Shown here: piece by piece, positions 2,297-19,659 of the stretch
Numbering within the stretch: the first letter of the stretch is position 1
Layout: the number at the start of each line of letters is the position of its first letter
The notes under the pieces: model-generated
What the model was told of the DNA's origin: nothing
What the model saw: the letters and a program-made list of their open reading frames with translations, nothing else
Database searches by the model: none
Position numbers and translations under genes: made by a program
Sequence record: NC_055712.1
DNA from: Escherichia phage phT4A
Direction: 5' to 3' (one strand)
DNA length: 64,000 nt

Positions 2297-2587
2297 ATGA
2301 GTTGTCCAACATGGTTACGTTTGGAAAATCTGAAAGAAGGTACACAAAAACGGATTTATATTAATCTTGGTTGGGTTCCTCCTACCGATTTTCAAATGGC
2401 TGAGATTTTAATCAATGCTGTTAAAGAAGTAAGCGACACTTACGAATGGGAAAGGCTCTATTTTCCTTTGATTGGTTTGTATATGACGCGAAATAAATTT
2501 GAAGAAATGAAACTTGCTGTTATTCGCGCTACGATTATTAATTCCCAACAAAGATTTACTTTGAAAAATGCATGGAGTTCTGAATGA
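2297..2587 (+). CDS. hypothetical protein (96 aa)
   Basis: Start moved from track 2252 to ATG 2297 (downstream of terminator, SD GAGGA); stop overlaps next start (ATGA). Confidence 0.6.
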   Translation: MSCPTWLRLENLKEGTQKRIYINLGWVPPTDFQMAEILINAVKEVSDTYEWERLYFPLIGLYMTRNKFEEMKLAVIRATIINSQQRFTLKNAWSSE

Positions 2588-2814
2588 TTATTCAAGTATC
2601 TGTACAGGGTGACACTCTGACTGTCACCGAATCCATCAATACCGCTCTTGCTGTATGTCGTGACCATATCTCACAAAATCCTCCAGTGACTGAGATCCTG
2701 GAAATTGATGTTTGGGATCAGATTGGGATGATCGACGCATCATATGGATTTACCCCGCGAGATGAAGAACTATCTCGTATCGAATCATGGCTGAATGAAC
2801 AGGAAACGGAATGA
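2584..2814 (+). CDS. hypothetical protein (76 aa)
   Basis: ORF track; ATGA start/stop coupling on both sides. Confidence 0.6.
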   Translation: MIIQVSVQGDTLTVTESINTALAVCRDHISQNPPVTEILEIDVWDQIGMIDASYGFTPRDEELSRIESWLNEQETE

Positions 2815-13045: not shown

Positions 13046-13408
13046 ATGAAAGCATTTCAAATTTTAGAAGGTTTGCATACTGGTACGATCTATCTGGAAG
13101 AAGGTAACGACGTTCGGATCGTAGTATCAAAAACATTAACTATGGATTCTGTGATCGGTAAAGCTCGCGTTACTCCGTTTGAAAAGCGAGAGATTGAGAT
13201 CGAATATCAACCAACTGTTAAGGTGGAAGGTGGACAGCATTTAAACGTAAACGTGTTGCGCCGCGAAACTCTCCTGGATGCGGTTGAACATCCTGAAAAA
13301 TATCCACAATTGACGATCCGTGTATCTGGTTATGCAGTGCGTTTTAACTCACTGACCCCTGAACAGCAACGCGACGTTATCGCCCGAACCTTTACAGAGA
13401 GTCTATAA
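13046..13408 (+). CDS. grcA: autonomous glycyl-radical cofactor (GrcA/YfiD-like)
   Basis: C-terminal [56 protein letters not shown] is almost identical to E. coli GrcA as recalled; N-terminal ~55 aa diverged. Confidence 0.85.
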
Positions 13409-13677
13409 TGGCAATTGATGATATCAAGGGTTATAAACCCCATACTGATAAAAAAGTAGAAACGGTAAACCGTATCAAAGATGCTGAAAATGCATTAGGT
13501 GCAATCCTGGAAGATATCGAACAGCGACTATCAAATTCAGATATTGATTCACTGATAGAGGAAGAATTAGATGAGGTGCTTGAACGTATCCATCAAATTC
13601 AACTAGCGAAAGACCGACTGAAAGAAGCCTCTATGTGGGCGTGTCGTGCGGTGTTTCAGCCTGACGAAAAATATTAA
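13408..13677 (+). CDS. hypothetical acidic protein (89 aa)
   Basis: ORF track; TAATG overlap with grcA stop. Confidence 0.6.
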   Translation: MAIDDIKGYKPHTDKKVETVNRIKDAENALGAILEDIEQRLSNSDIDSLIEEELDEVLERIHQIQLAKDRLKEASMWACRAVFQPDEKY

Positions 13678-13684
13678 AAATCAA

Positions 13685-13718
13685 GCCGTTGCCGAAAGGT
13701 AGCGGCTTTTTCTTTTTT
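13685..13718 (+). terminator. rho-independent terminator
   Basis: GCCGTTGCC-GAAA-GGTAGCGGC then TTTTTCTTTTTT. Confidence 0.7.
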
Positions 13719-13732
13719 GGTGTAAAAAGTTG

Positions 13733-13761
13733 TTGACTCCCTTCTCACATTCCCTTATAGT
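13733..13761 (+). promoter_or_regulatory. strong sigma70-type early promoter
   Basis: TTGACT-17 nt-TATAGT. Confidence 0.7.
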
Positions 13762-13802
13762 TAATCCCGTAGACAAGAAAACACTTTTATGAGGATGACA
13801 TT

Positions 13803-14096
13803 ATGAAACGCTCTTACAACATGAATGAACTGGTTTTCTTCAAAACTCGTCGTGAAGCACGTGCTTACGTTCTGGCGGCTGGTAAAAATACTTCTGCTGC
13901 TATCGATATGGGTACTGATAAAGCTGTTGGTGCTCGTTGGGCCGCTGTTATCGTTATCGCTGCTCCGGTTACTCCGGTTAAAACTCTGGTACTTGGTGCG
14001 CGTCACGCCGAAACTCTTAACACTGCTGCAAGCGGTAGGGGCCACGAAGTTAAAGTGTTCAAGAAGCGTTCTTATCTTTCATGTGCAAGGGGTTAA
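13803..14096 (+). CDS. hypothetical basic, Ala-rich early protein (97 aa)
   Basis: First ORF after strong promoter; codon usage dominated by GCT/GGT/CGT/ACT/CTG; FKTRREARAY..RWAAV. Confidence 0.6.
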   Translation: MKRSYNMNELVFFKTRREARAYVLAAGKNTSAAIDMGTDKAVGARWAAVIVIAAPVTPVKTLVLGARHAETLNTAASGRGHEVKVFKKRSYLSCARG

Positions 14097-14098
14097 CT

Positions 14099-14338
14099 AT
14101 GGCACGATTCATATATAAAGTGGAATACGAAAATACTGAGTTATCTGATACCTTTTTGAAGATGATTCGTGACCACGGGCAACGTCTGGAAAGAGTAACG
14201 ATTGATACTGCGTTTGATTGTCCTGTTGGGTTGGTTCTAACATTATCTTGCAGCCCTGCAAAAGAATCAGCCCGTGTTGAAATGTTACATAAACTAAATG
14301 CATTTTATGAAGGTGGTAGTGTATGGCGAGTATTGTAA
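14099..14338 (+). CDS. hypothetical protein (79 aa)
   Basis: Start moved to ATG 14099, 2 nt after upstream stop. Confidence 0.55.
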   Translation: MARFIYKVEYENTELSDTFLKMIRDHGQRLERVTIDTAFDCPVGLVLTLSCSPAKESARVEMLHKLNAFYEGGSVWRVL

Positions 14339-14493
14339 AATTTTTCACCGACTCAGTGAAAGAAATTAACAGCGCTCTGGAACAATGGAACACTCGCTGT
14401 GATGTATCCATTAAATCAGAGTACGAAACAACTTATGATCGTTATGATCAGGCCCGTGGTTTGCACAATAACCCCCATGAGGTGGAAGTGTGA
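14323..14493 (+). CDS. hypothetical small protein (56 aa)
   Basis: Manual: MASIVKFFTDSVKEINSALEQWNTRCD..; fills otherwise empty coding space. Confidence 0.4.
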   Translation: MASIVKFFTDSVKEINSALEQWNTRCDVSIKSEYETTYDRYDQARGLHNNPHEVEV

Positions 14494-14642
14494 AATACTA
14501 CGGATTCAAAACGAGTCATTTTGGTAAAGCGTATCGTACAGAAAACATCGATCGCAAACGTCCGTACTATGATTCTTTAGTACGCGCGGGACGCAAACGC
14601 GCTCGCCAGGAAGGGAAGAAGGAAGCAGAAAATGAACTTTGA
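14490..14642 (+). CDS. hypothetical basic small protein (50 aa, GTG start)
   Basis: Manual: (M)KYYGFKTSHFGKAYRTENIDRKRPYYDSLVRAGRKRARQEGKKEAENEL; GTGTGA overlap. Confidence 0.35.
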   Translation: MKYYGFKTSHFGKAYRTENIDRKRPYYDSLVRAGRKRARQEGKKEAENEL

Positions 14643-14736
14643 TCAACCCATTGCAATGATAATCGGTGCTGTCCTGGGAATGCTTCTTTTGTTTGGCGGA
14701 ATCCCATTAACTGCATATATCATGAGGTTATTCTAA
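14632..14736 (+). CDS. hypothetical single-TM micro-protein (34 aa)
   Basis: Manual: MNFDQPIAMIIGAVLGMLLLFGGIPLTAYIMRLF. Confidence 0.4.
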   Translation: MNFDQPIAMIIGAVLGMLLLFGGIPLTAYIMRLF

Positions 14737-14737
14737 A

Positions 14738-15178
14738 ATGGACATCGGATCAGGTAGTCAGTATCCCTCATGCGCTTTAAGCAACTTTGCCCCGCATCCG
14801 TTTACGTTCGACGGGGTAGAATGCGCATCGATGGAGGGGCTTTTACAAAGCCTGAAATTCAGCAATCCAGACATGCAAGCGCATGTATGTACGCTGGTTG
14901 GTAAAGCCGCCAAGTTCAAAGGCAAGAAAAAGAAATGGTATCGCGATCAGACCTTGTACTGGAAAGGTACACCGATCCATCGCGAATCCGAAGCGTACCA
15001 GATTCTTATTGAAAATGCGTACAATGCTCTTTTCCTGAATGACGGGTTCCGCCGTGCGCTGGCAGCAACCGGAAAAAGTACCTTGACACATTCAATGGGG
15101 AAATCTCGTATGAACGAAACTATTCTGACAGAACGAGAATTTATTAGAAATTTGAACAGGTTGAGAAATTTGTTATGA
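14738..15178 (+). CDS. NADAR (YbiA/DUF1768) domain protein
   Basis: CALSNFAPHPFTFDGVECASMEGLLQSLKF matches the NADAR signature (SNF.P.PF..DG....S.E...Q..KF). Confidence 0.75.
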   Translation: MDIGSGSQYPSCALSNFAPHPFTFDGVECASMEGLLQSLKFSNPDMQAHVCTLVGKAAKFKGKKKKWYRDQTLYWKGTPIHRESEAYQILIENAYNALFLNDGFRRALAATGKSTLTHSMGKSRMNETILTEREFIRNLNRLRNLL

Positions 15179-15693
15179 AAAGCGCTGATAACCTAAAAAA
15201 AGAAATTGAAGGAATCAAGAAATTATTGCATTATATCGATGTTGATATAGAGACTGGAATATGTACTTGGAAAAGACCCAGAAAATCTATAAATGTTGGT
15301 GATGTTGCTGGATGTAAGAAAGAAAAATATCATGTTATTTGTTTCGATTATAGGTTGTATAGACGACACAGGATTGTGTTCTATTTTGCTAAAGGTTACT
15401 TACCTCAAGTAGTAGACCACATTCATGGTGTTGAACATGGCGACGGTATTGATAATTTACAAGAGGCATCGCAAAGACAAAACGTTATTAAAAAGAAAGG
15501 ACAGAAAAACAACAAAAGTGGTTATCGAGGGGTGTGTTGGTCGTCTCGTGCTGAAAAGTATCGAGCAACTATAGGTATTGATGGAAAACAAATACATTTA
15601 GGATATTTCGATACTCCAGAAGAAGCAAGTAAAGCATATCATCAAAAAGCGAAAGAAACTTTTGGTGATTTTTATAATCCATTGGTTAAATGA
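15175..15693 (+). CDS. free-standing HNH-AP2 homing endonuclease (paralog 2; mobile)
   Basis: RHRIVFYFAKGYLPQVVDHIHG..GIDNLQ plus YRGVCWSSRAEKYRATIGIDGKQIHLGYFDTPEEA; ATGA overlap with NADAR stop. Confidence 0.85.
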   Translation: MKSADNLKKEIEGIKKLLHYIDVDIETGICTWKRPRKSINVGDVAGCKKEKYHVICFDYRLYRRHRIVFYFAKGYLPQVVDHIHGVEHGDGIDNLQEASQRQNVIKKKGQKNNKSGYRGVCWSSRAEKYRATIGIDGKQIHLGYFDTPEEASKAYHQKAKETFGDFYNPLVK

Positions 15694-15965
15694 GATCTGT
15701 TATGAGTGAAAAAGAAAGAGTAGAATGCGTGTTCCTGTTCAAAGGCGCGATTAATCCATTAGCGTTACTGTATGCGCAACATGCATTACGTTCAACGTTG
15801 ATTCAGAGTGTTATCTATAAAGCAGGTGTGTATTATGTTACCATCGGCGCAAATAACATGGTTGTTATTGAATCCTATGTTAAGGAATGTGCATCAAACG
15901 GCGTTGTCTTTGATAAAGTCGATTTTGATGCAGGGGTAGATGCTGTTTATATGTATAAGGGTTGA
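15690..15965 (+). CDS. hypothetical protein (91 aa)
   Basis: ORF track; ATGA coupling. Confidence 0.55.
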   Translation: MRSVMSEKERVECVFLFKGAINPLALLYAQHALRSTLIQSVIYKAGVYYVTIGANNMVVIESYVKECASNGVVFDKVDFDAGVDAVYMYKG

Positions 15966-15966
15966 T

Positions 15967-16188
15967 ATGAGTTACGTAGTTTATTTCGATTGTTCGGATC
16001 TCGATCCGTTCGTGCTTCAACAGGCAAAGAAATATCATCAAGATGTCGTTGGCATTGGTGTAACAAATGATGATATGTTGTGCATCGAATTTGAATATTA
16101 TCGGACATTTGAGCGTGAACAATTCCTGGGTGAATTGAATGCATTCAAAAGTACCCTTTTCTTTGATCGTTATGAGGTTATATCTTGA
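15967..16188 (+). CDS. hypothetical protein (73 aa)
   Basis: Start moved to ATG 15967, just after upstream stop. Confidence 0.55.
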   Translation: MSYVVYFDCSDLDPFVLQQAKKYHQDVVGIGVTNDDMLCIEFEYYRTFEREQFLGELNAFKSTLFFDRYEVIS

Positions 16189-16799
16189 AACCTGTTATTC
16201 TTACCGATATTGACGGGATCGCCGTAAAATGGCAGTCGGGGTTGCCTTTCTTTTTGTCTAAGCACAACATGCCTACTGATATTGCATTGGAAATGGTTAC
16301 GGATGAAAAATTTCGTGATATGACCGAAATCTTCGGATGTGATCAGCAGTTGGCTAAAATCCTTATGGAAGAATACAATAACAGTTCTTTCATTCGTTAT
16401 CTGAATGCGTATGATGATGCATTGATTGTGATCAACCGTCTGAAAACGCAGTATGATTTCGTTGCCGTTACCGCTCTGGGAACAACACCAACGGCAAGCC
16501 TTAACCGAATTGCTAACCTGAATACTCTTTTCCCGTCTGCGTTTAAAGAGGTGATGGTCGTGGGCCACGGTGAAACAAAAACTCATCGTTACCTGGAAGC
16601 AAAAGCAAAGTATGGTAATCGTCTGGTTTGCTTTGTTGATGATCTCGCGATAAACTTAAACGAATGTCATAACGTCATTAGTCAGTTGCCGTTATTCCAT
16701 ATGTTACGTGGTGAACGTGAAGAAACAAATGCACCTCACCAGTTAGTAAAATCGTGGTTTGAAATTGAAGAGAAACTAAATGATCTTGTCAATCCTTAA
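16185..16799 (+). CDS. HAD-superfamily phosphatase
   Basis: Motif I ILTDIDGIAV, motif IV CFVDDLAINL; TTG start overlapping upstream stop. Confidence 0.65.
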   Translation: MKPVILTDIDGIAVKWQSGLPFFLSKHNMPTDIALEMVTDEKFRDMTEIFGCDQQLAKILMEEYNNSSFIRYLNAYDDALIVINRLKTQYDFVAVTALGTTPTASLNRIANLNTLFPSAFKEVMVVGHGETKTHRYLEAKAKYGNRLVCFVDDLAINLNECHNVISQLPLFHMLRGEREETNAPHQLVKSWFEIEEKLNDLVNP

Positions 16800-18309
16800 T
16801 GAACTTGCGTCTACTCTGAAAACCAAAGAGAAAGAAGCAATTTTAAAACGTAATGCCGATAATGAATTATTGAAAGAAGTTTTCCGCATTACGTATACAA
16901 AACAGATTATGTTTTATGTGCGTCAATTTCCTCTGGTAGAAGGGAAACCAGGCACAACACCGCTTTCCGATGCAATCAAAGCATTGCTGGAAGATTTAGC
17001 AAGCCGGAAATATACAGGCAATGCAGCGCGTGATCGTTTACTGGATATTGTATCATCAGTGAACATTAACGATCGTGAAGTGCTACGCCGTATCATTAAC
17101 CGCGATCTGGAATGTGGTGCTGGCACAACCTTACCAAACAGGGTATGGAAGAAACTCATTCCTGAACAGCCTCAATGCCTCGCTACGCCGTTTAGTGAAA
17201 AGGCTTTACGTCGCATCATTTTCCCTGCTTACTCGCAGCTTAAAGCCGATGGTGCGCGTTGTATGGCTGATTTGTTGGAAGCATTAAACCGTAAAGTATC
17301 GAGGGCGGGTAACGAGTACGAAGGGTTAACCCAACTTGATATCGATCTGAAAAAGATTCGCGATTATCTGGGATATGATGTAGTTCTGGATGGAGAATTG
17401 ATTTATGTTCCTTCCGGAACCGTACCAACATTACCTGAACCTGAAACAGACATGCCTTTTTCTTTATCTGCTTTCATGGACGATGATGATAACGACATTG
17501 CGTTATTTGCGGAAGAAGTTCGCAAAGTATCGACCCCAGAAGAAGAACAGGCCGAAGCAAAACGCGAAGAAGGGAACGGGATCGTAAACAAATCTCTGAA
17601 AGGGACGATCACCGAAGAAGAACAGCGAAACATTGTTTATGTTGTTTGGGATATTATTCCATATGAGGTGTATTACGGCGAAGCTGAAAGTGTTCAGACT
17701 TATGATGAACGGTTTAGCCTGTTGCGTGATATCCTCCTGGATCTTTCTCTGCCTTCTGTTCGTTTGATTCAGTCTAAGCTGGTTAATAACATTGCAGAAG
17801 CGAAACAGGACTATAACAATTACCGCAATGACGGTAAAGAAGGTTCTATTCTCAAAAACAGAAACTTCAAATGGAAAGATTCGCGAGTAGCCGATCAGGT
17901 TAAGCTGAAAAACAAAACCCCGATTGAACTACGGATCATTGATATCTACGCGCACACTAAAGAAGACCATAAGGTCGGCGGGTTTGTGGTGGAAGATTTA
18001 TCCGGAATGGCTCGAACGAATACCGGATCTGGGTTAACTGATACCGATTATCGTTACGATGATGATGGTATTACCCGTGTATACATTCCATTAGATGAAC
18101 GTGGTGAACTGGATCGCGAATACATCATGGCGCATAAAGATGAATACATTGGGGCCATTGTAGAAATGGAAGTTGACGGCCTCCAGAAGTCGAAAACGCG
18201 TAAGAAAGGGGAACCGGAATACAGTTTCTTCCTTCCTATTATCAAGAAGATAAGACGCGATAAGACCGAACCCGACGATATTCATGTTGTCTTTGCAGAT
18301 CTATTTTGA
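16780..18309 (+). CDS. 30: ATP-dependent DNA ligase
   Basis: Collinear with T4 gp30 as recalled (MILSILNELAS..AILKRNADNELLKEVF..AQLKADGARC..NGIVNKSLKGTI). Confidence 0.9.
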   Translation: MILSILNELASTLKTKEKEAILKRNADNELLKEVFRITYTKQIMFYVRQFPLVEGKPGTTPLSDAIKALLEDLASRKYTGNAARDRLLDIVSSVNINDREVLRRIINRDLECGAGTTLPNRVWKKLIPEQPQCLATPFSEKALRRIIFPAYSQLKADGARCMADLLEALNRKVSRAGNEYEGLTQLDIDLKKIRDYLGYDVVLDGELIYVPSGTVPTLPEPETDMPFSLSAFMDDDDNDIALFAEEVRKVSTPEEEQAEAKREEGNGIVNKSLKGTITEEEQRNIVYVVWDIIPYEVYYGEAESVQTYDERFSLLRDILLDLSLPSVRLIQSKLVNNIAEAKQDYNNYRNDGKEGSILKNRNFKWKDSRVADQVKLKNKTPIELRIIDIYAHTKEDHKVGGFVVEDLSGMARTNTGSGLTDTDYRYDDDGITRVYIPLDERGELDREYIMAHKDEYIGAIVEMEVDGLQKSKTRKKGEPEYSFFLPIIKKIRRDKTEPDDIHVVFADLF

Positions 18310-18310
18310 T

Positions 18311-18348
18311 AAAAAGCCCTTGACTCCGGTCGGGGGCTTTGTTATATT
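18311..18348 (+). promoter_or_regulatory. hairpin-embedded early promoter cassette (PeSL-like)
   Basis: AAAAAGCCC-TTGACT-CCGGTCGGGGGCTTTGT-TATATT: -35 in hairpin loop, 17-nt spacer. Confidence 0.65.
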
Positions 18349-19347: not shown

Positions 19348-19659
19348 ATGAATAGCGGAAAATTACAAATGAAAGTTAGCGAAGAAGAAGTTAAAGAGCG
19401 GTTATCGGTAGCAAGAAGATTCCTTGAATCTATCGACCCTGATAAACTTGGAAAATGCCCTGATACGATTTGCCTTAATTGTGGGCGTTCTGTTCTTGTT
19501 GGTAAGTGTTGCGATAATCCAAATATAGTTGTGATGGAAAAGGAACAAGTATCCCCCGAAACATGGGATCAGATCCAGGAAATCATTAAAAACCCTCCAG
19601 CGCCAACTAAGAAATTACGTGAATTGATGACAAGGAAAATGAAATATGAGCAAATTTAA
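19348..19659 (+). CDS. hypothetical Cys-rich protein (103 aa)
   Basis: ORF track; CPDTICLNCG..GKCCDNP possible zinc site. Confidence 0.6.
   Translation: MNSGKLQMKVSEEEVKERLSVARRFLESIDPDKLGKCPDTICLNCGRSVLVGKCCDNPNIVVMEKEQVSPETWDQIQEIIKNPPAPTKKLRELMTRKMKYEQI

Follow-up and report, generated by a model that had tools for sequence, protein, structure and literature searches.

The window analysed here is a stretch of 64,000 nucleotides of Escherichia phage phT4A (sequence record NC_055712.1), read on one strand from 5′ to 3′. Its region 13600-16200 is 99-100% identical to Slopekvirus phages of Klebsiella (Straboviridae, T4-like), for example vB_KpnM-VAC66 and Prick1_ER44. In this region, a terminator-like hairpin and a predicted promoter are followed on the same strand by five small open reading frames (ORFs), by the gene that we call adfN after its T4 counterpart and by a gene for an HNH-AP2 homing endonuclease; the DNA ligase gene lies further downstream (Table 1). 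At adfN the identity to Prick1_ER44 is 100%. The gene is labelled 'hypothetical protein' in VAC66, Miro and Prick1_ER44, and Miro adds the note 'T4 Y12G-like'.

Table 1. Features of the adfN locus; positions are counted from the first nucleotide of the window.
Feature	Position	Strand	Basis
Terminator-like hairpin, 11 pairs and T-run, ending the upstream unit (Gly-radical and Acb2-like genes)	13683..13708	+	Hairpin scan; terminator annotated at the equivalent Miro position
Predicted sigma-70-type early-like promoter, TTGACT-17-TATAGT	13733..13761	+	Consensus match, 10/12
Small ORF 1, 97 aa, conserved phage protein	13803..14096	+	phrog_7596, E = 3e-55; annotated in VAC66 and Miro
Small ORF 2, 79 aa (alternative start ATG 14081 gives 85 aa)	14099..14338	+	phrog_16878, E = 2e-58
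Small ORF 3, 56 aa	14323..14493	+	phrog_5441, E = 7e-28
Small ORF 4, 50 aa, basic; last ~7 codons within the divergent cassette	14490..14642	+	phrog_6713, E = 1.5e-36
Divergent cassette relative to phage Miro, ~1.07 kb: end of small ORF 4, small ORF 5, adfN, HNH insert	14621..15693	+	Alignment to Miro
Small ORF 5, 34 aa, one hydrophobic helix, putative coding	14632..14736	+	Annotated in VAC66 and Prick1
adfN (counterpart of T4 gene 30.3), phage-type NADAR, predicted DNA guanine-ADP-ribose glycohydrolase	14738..15178	+	146 aa
Codon for E33 (catalytic E36 of T4 AdfN, E43 of PnNADAR, E48 of YbiA)	14834..14836	+	Alignments; role from PMC11825919
Codon for K40 (K43 of T4 AdfN, K50 of PnNADAR, K55 of YbiA)	14855..14857	+	Alignments; role from the T4 and PnNADAR papers
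Codon for H118, last-strand His (motif LTHSMG) typical of phage NADARs	15089..15091	+	Alignments
C-terminal helix, residues 132-145, missing from the RB69 allele	15131..15172	+	DSSP on the predicted structure; alignment to the end of T4 AdfN
Free-standing HNH-AP2 homing endonuclease gene, 172 aa	15175..15693	+	Pfam HNH_3, AP2; phrog_99
DNA ligase (T4 gene 30 homologue), synteny anchor for the 30.x region	16780..18309	+	VAC66 and Miro annotation; T4 gene order

The original prediction placed a near-consensus early promoter at 13733 and five tiny ORFs between it and adfN, and both were recovered. The predicted promoter shares the best score in a 6-kb scan with a site at 18320 and lies directly 3′ of the hairpin, which is a strong one, and all five ORFs are present, four of them with a conserved PHROG match. 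The phrog_16878 profile matches residues 7-85 of the long form of small ORF 2; Miro annotates the short form. Small ORF 5, unlike the other four, has no match to a PHROG family. Its slot in Miro (about 2535..2650, L003) is occupied by a different small hydrophobic ORF that, on our reading of the alignment, is unalignable with it, and the label 'tripartite tricarboxylate transporter permease' given to small ORF 5 in VAC66 looks spurious. It had further been proposed that adfN closes this cluster. The five ORFs do precede it, but 'closes' goes too far, as no terminator-like site follows the gene. The next strong terminator-like site past adfN is at 18313, after the DNA ligase gene. The transcription unit therefore probably continues beyond adfN, and an internal position in a long early unit is more likely for the gene than a terminal one.

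The adfN ORF starts with ATG, 10 nt downstream of a GAGG Shine-Dalgarno sequence, and encodes the peptide SNFAPHPFTFDGVECASMEGLLQSLKF at residues 15-41 (nt 14780-14860). In Pfam, its product matches PF08010, "Bacteriophage protein GP30.3", with E = 6e-55 and 185.2 bits (cutoff 36), and the alignment covers model positions 2-137 of 138; the match is therefore full-length and above the curated threshold. Among the PHROG profiles, phrog_652 matches with E = 4e-52. A collection of 5.8 billion proteins holds 4138 homologues at E ≤ 1e-3, and an exhaustive search gave 1124 cluster representatives. Relative to the allele of phage Miro, 54 codon differences are synonymous and 14 non-synonymous, which indicates purifying selection on adfN. 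The PF08010 match, the number of homologues and the pattern of codon differences together mean that the ORF is no chance feature, and the gene called in the original prediction is a real one.

The relation of this family to the canonical NADAR proteins is more distant. The product had been described as carrying the NADAR (YbiA/DUF1768) signature, which is correct at the level of the superfamily; the Pfam NADAR model PF08719, however, scores it at 13.8 bits, below the gathering threshold of 35.1, and the family to which it belongs is PF08010, the gp30.3 branch. Ten of 60 diverse gp30.3-family members reach PF08719 at E ≤ 0.01; among those listed with a bit score, the best has 29.3 bits (P0129), and none passes the threshold. 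The NADAR-type matches of the adfN product in NCBIfam all fall far below their cutoffs, including TIGR02464, 'riboflavin biosynthesis intermediates N-glycosidase' (E = 0.0095, 16.2 bits, cutoff 73.7). Searches of all PDB chain sequences with single-sequence phmmer and with a profile of close homologues found no NADAR; with a profile of diverse family representatives, YbiA came out on top (E = 0.022). When this diverse-family profile was compared with E. coli YbiA by hhalign, the probability was 94.5% (E = 8e-8), and E33 was paired with E48 and K40 with K55. The canonical SxEH reads SMEG in the adfN product, which has His in place of Glu or Asp at the third catalytic position. Judged by sequence, the link to canonical NADAR is thus a remote one. 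As a side observation, several metagenomic relatives (P0164, P0171, P0251, P0199 and P0180) have a gp30.3-type NADAR domain at the C-terminus of longer predicted proteins, the N-terminal parts of which match enzymes of the cell envelope or repeats (Lgt, the D-Ala-D-Ala ligase C-terminal domain, FtsW/RodA and BspA-type LRR), and P0134 appears to hold tandem gp30.3-type NADAR copies. Such proteins may represent genuine fusions from cellular organisms, or they may arise from read-through in gene calling.

The AlphaFold2 model of the adfN product (pLDDT 90.7, pTM 0.86) has the YbiA/NADAR fold, and its closest structural match is E. coli YbiA. This match, together with the weak hit to TIGR02464, favours a YbiA-like metabolic N-glycosidase that would act on reactive intermediates of the riboflavin pathway and have no part in defence evasion. 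We regard this as extremely improbable. The TIGR02464 score lies far below its cutoff, the last-strand Glu that defines YbiA is His in the adfN product, no riboflavin gene context surrounds adfN, and the T4 counterpart has a demonstrated role in DNA de-ADP-ribosylation. Several differences set the adfN product apart from E. coli YbiA (PDB 2b3w): it misses the thresholds of both PF08719 and TIGR02464, His replaces Glu125 of YbiA, and it has a family-specific beta-hairpin insertion at residues ~68-84. The roles also differ, being riboflavin damage control and swarming for YbiA and, as predicted here, counter-defence for adfN.

Within this fold, the residues expected of an active enzyme are retained. 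E33, K40 and H118 are invariant among 40 homologues of at least 67% identity, and in a set of 60 diverse representatives together with T4 each shows a conservation of at least 90%. The residue on the last strand sorts the NADAR families, as three papers describe (PMC11125620 and PMC12945103 among them): it is Glu in YbiA, Asp in DarG1/BC4488 and His in phage NADARs. H118 is placed opposite E125 of YbiA, the hhalign alignment ending one residue earlier, at T117 (V124 of YbiA). For the ADP-ribose contacts D130 and W133 of PnNADAR, reading of the sequence found no obvious equivalent after H118, nor does T4 AdfN have one. Structure prediction and a comparison of catalytic residues had been suggested as checks in the original prediction; they gave a NADAR fold in which E33, K40 and H118 are conserved, not lost.

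The C-terminal end of the protein bears on its activity as well. RB69 carries a natural frameshift allele without the last 15 residues, and such a truncation lowers AdfN activity (PMC11825919). The adfN product aligns with T4 AdfN to the last residue and reaches the same C-terminus, and the helix assigned there by DSSP (residues 132-145) is confidently modelled, with block pLDDT values of 96 for residues 131-140 and 95 for residues 141-146. RB69 shows that loss-of-function alleles occur in nature, and adfN sits in a recombinant cassette beside a selfish gene, so the window allele might be imagined as an inactive or decaying RB69-like one carried as a passenger of the homing-endonuclease cassette. 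We consider this highly improbable, as the full-length frame still encodes the C-terminal helix, no catalytic residue has been lost, and the codon differences from Miro point to purifying selection.

The protein that best informs the function of adfN is gp30.3 of T4 (UniProt Y12G_BPT4). BLASTP aligns the two over their full length with 43% identity (E = 3e-34), and both belong to PF08010. Both genes also occupy the same site in a T4-like genome: adfN is located ~1.6 kb upstream of DNA ligase, at the same place as in T4, Miro and VAC66, and the T4 gene order is 30.3-30.2-30.1-30. The two proteins share the same minimal, core-only NADAR fold, the E/K/H catalytic set and the intact C-terminal helix. 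Family membership, synteny, fold, catalytic residues and C-terminal helix are thus established for the window gene itself. There are, on the other hand, distinguishable differences: 57% of the residues differ, the host genus of the Slopekviruses is Klebsiella whereas that of T4 is Escherichia, and adfN is followed by the HNH-AP2 gene whereas 30.3 is followed by 30.2.

T4 gene 30.3 has been renamed adfN, for anti-DarT factor NADAR (Johannesman et al., Nat Commun 2025; PMC11825919). In that work, AdfN was found to be necessary for the resistance of T4 to DarTG1 and sufficient to rescue RB69; deletion of adfN sensitises T4 to DarTG1, and resistance during infection was demonstrated for the T4 and T2 alleles (PMC11825919). 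A two-hybrid assay showed no binding of the T4 protein to DarT1, and the purified protein strips ADP-ribose from DarT1-modified DNA in vitro (PMC11825919). Its E36A and K43A mutants rescue RB69 more weakly, and purified E36A fails to remove ADP-ribose (PMC11825919). The T4 enzyme hydrolyses guanine-ADPr on both DNA and RNA in vitro and is inactive on T-ADPr and C-ADPr (PMC11125620, PMC12945103). Its activity depends on the setting: it works fully only in T-even infection, helps non-T-even phages weakly (PMC11825919) and does not rescue uninfected E. coli that expresses DarT1 (PMC11825919, PMC11125620). The function of the family is therefore already known from work published in 2023-2025, and the window gene is an ordinary syntenic member of it. 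Among the papers listed by our search of the literature on DarTG with Slopekvirus or Klebsiella, none addresses this gene.

From these comparisons, the adfN product is probably the Slopekvirus counterpart of T4 AdfN, a DNA guanine-ADP-ribose glycohydrolase directed against DarTG1. Its substrate, its role against DarTG1 and its dependence on the infection context would be those of the T4 protein; since T4 AdfN is fully active only in T-even infection, we infer, rather than observe, that the phenotype transfers to a Slopekvirus. In the proposed mechanism, adfN would be expressed as part of the early region that precedes the DNA ligase gene. Host DarT1 of the DarTG1 defence would attach ADP-ribose to guanine N2 of the phage DNA and thereby block replication; the adfN product, as a minimal N-glycosidase of NADAR fold, would hydrolyse the bond between ADP-ribose and guanine N2, and the marks would be erased. 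Its mode of action would be catalytic removal of the modification, not binding or sequestration of the toxin. The distal ribose and the diphosphate would be held in place by E33 and K40, with H118 at the site where other NADARs have their catalytic Glu or Asp. The central proposal of the original prediction, a reverser of DarT1 guanine ADP-ribosylation, thus finds support by analogy with T4 AdfN, through homology, synteny, fold, catalytic residues and the C-terminal helix. A negative result of co-expression with DarT1 in uninfected cells would not refute it, because T4 AdfN itself fails there.

The original prediction had also pointed to NADAR proteins reported as antitoxins. The reading as a NADAR-type reverser is supported, but adfN is an orphan phage counter-defence gene and not the antitoxin of a toxin-antitoxin pair. 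Profile searches of the ORFs neighbouring adfN found no ART or DarT domain, and the setting is a phage early region. A DarG1-type antitoxin was excluded because the vicinity contains no toxin gene, His stands on the last strand where DarG1 has Asp, and the N-terminal extension is missing. The DarG1 proteins (BC4488 family; Geobacter lovleyi NADAR, PDB 8bat) differ accordingly: adfN has no adjacent darT1, DarG1 has Asp where the adfN product has His118, and the 8bat chain has 219 residues with its N-terminal extension whereas the adfN product is a core-only protein of 146 aa. The T4 phage enzyme, moreover, cannot replace DarG1 in uninfected cells. AdfN-Bas32 and AdfN-Bas60 (from Markadamsvirinae and Vequintavirinae) are likewise orphan phage NADARs that counter DarTG1. 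However, they were acquired independently, they belong to other NADAR branches and not to the PF08010 type, and they neutralise DarT1 even without infection (PMC11825919).

Two other readings concern what an active adfN product would act upon. In the first, the target would be guanine ADP-ribosylation of RNA, or the modifications made by Klebsiella ART toxins (pierisin/ScARP-like or YarT-like). All NADAR families, the T4 enzyme included, also clear G-ADPr from RNA in vitro, and several unrelated ARTs make G-ADPr (PMC12945103). A new ART-YbiA toxin-antitoxin pair (YarT) indicates that NADARs pair with toxins other than DarT, and the adfN product differs from the T4 enzyme at more than half of its positions. 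Nevertheless, anti-DarTG1 is the only phenotype that the family is known to have in vivo, and the residues linked to catalysis and specificity (the last-strand His, of the guanine-only class) do not differ from those of T4; we consider another target unlikely. In the second, adfN would do housekeeping for the phage's own ARTs of the Alt/ModA/ModB type by clearing their off-target modifications of nucleic acid. T4-like phages do encode ARTs, with T4 alt located just beyond the ligase gene in the same region, and the need of T4 AdfN for the T-even infection context would fit such a role. Yet Alt and Mod enzymes are not known to modify guanine bases, and the phenotype of the T4 adfN deletion appears specifically on DarTG1 hosts, which makes this reading very improbable. 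The reversal of DarT1 marks remains the most probable function of adfN.

The gene that follows adfN raises a separate point. As originally predicted, the start of the HNH-AP2 gene overlaps the adfN stop, its ATG and the TGA sharing ATGA at 15175. Its product scores 26.1 bits against HNH_3 (cutoff 24.8) and 30.3 bits against AP2, just under the cutoff of 33.3, and phrog_99 matches residues 5-168 with E = 1.6e-57, which supports the long start of this ORF. The gene is absent from Miro and from most Slopekviruses. Its insertion lies at the end of the divergent cassette, the flanks of which are at least 99% identical to Miro on both sides; within the cassette, adfN has about 81% nucleotide identity to Miro, and the small-ORF segment 14621-14737 is more divergent. 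A 527-bp insert that contains the HNH gene (15167..15693) is missing in Miro, and the divergent tract, which begins at ~14621, ends exactly at this insert. The final adfN codons are supplied by the insert itself, in re-coded form. The junction was read by eye and by ungapped comparison: the window reads TTGAGA, then AATTTGTTATGA...AAATGA, then GATCTGTTATGAGTG, whereas Miro passes directly from TTGAGA to GATCTGTTATGAGTG. The ORF that follows (15690..15965, + strand) can start at ATG 15690, which overlaps the HNH stop, or at ATG 15703 (MSEKERVE...), where the ORF begins in Prick1 and in Miro, which has no HNH gene. As 15703 is the start in the phage without the HNH gene, the insertion created the alternative in-frame start upstream at 15690.

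In the phage collection, the full cassette occurs in 19 database records (89.7-100% identity), each of which carries the HNH gene, and the relatives without this gene are at most 89% identical over the shared part of the cassette. This pattern is as expected for co-conversion of donor flanks by a homing endonuclease and suggests a homing-linked allele replacement. One could go further and suppose that the window adfN is a non-resident allele that arrived with the cassette, the selfish endonuclease spreading this anti-DarT allele and the membrane-peptide ORF among Slopekviruses; we regard this as a speculative and rather doubtful extension. If it were true, the 14 amino-acid differences from Miro might retune AdfN to other DarT1 variants or to another infection context.

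The surroundings of adfN contain other ORFs of note. Directly ahead of the terminator-like hairpin and the promoter at the head of the adfN unit, an ORF of 89 aa (13408..13677, + strand) matches the Acb2/Tad1 hairpin domain PF24729 (E = 3.4e-17, 62.8 bits, cutoff 27). Proteins of the Acb2/Tad1 family are nucleotide sponges that act against CBASS and Thoeris, and from its domain match this ORF probably encodes a cyclic-nucleotide sponge of the Acb2 type. Before it, an ORF of 120 aa (13046..13408, + strand) has a glycyl-radical domain (PF01228, E = 3.6e-18), is annotated 'glycyl radical cofactor' in Miro and resembles the GrcA/YfiD 'spare part' for enzymes of the pyruvate formate-lyase type. Downstream of the ligase gene, an ORF of 103 aa (19348..19659, + strand) has a weak TacA1/DUF1778 match (E = 0.0018, 18.6 bits, below the cutoff of 21), and in VAC66 the corresponding ORF bears the label DUF1778 antitoxin; with it, the same early region may hold a second orphan gene of antitoxin type. 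The PADLOC models gave no match for the adfN product, nor for the neighbouring Acb2-like and TacA-like ORFs. A search by tblastn for a homologue of T4 gp61.2 (AdfA) found none in the window, which covers about one third of the phage genome (best E = 1.9). The adfN region looks rich in counter-defence genes.

In its biology, the analysis goes no further than the published AdfN work, and its value lies in better annotation: a function is assigned to a gene that stands as a hypothetical protein in the three related phages named above. Slopekviruses are candidates for phage therapy against Klebsiella. By analogy with T4, the annotation predicts that these phages would resist DNA ADP-ribosylation defence of the DarTG1 type, and the link to the homing endonuclease offers a small lead on how anti-defence alleles may move between related phages.
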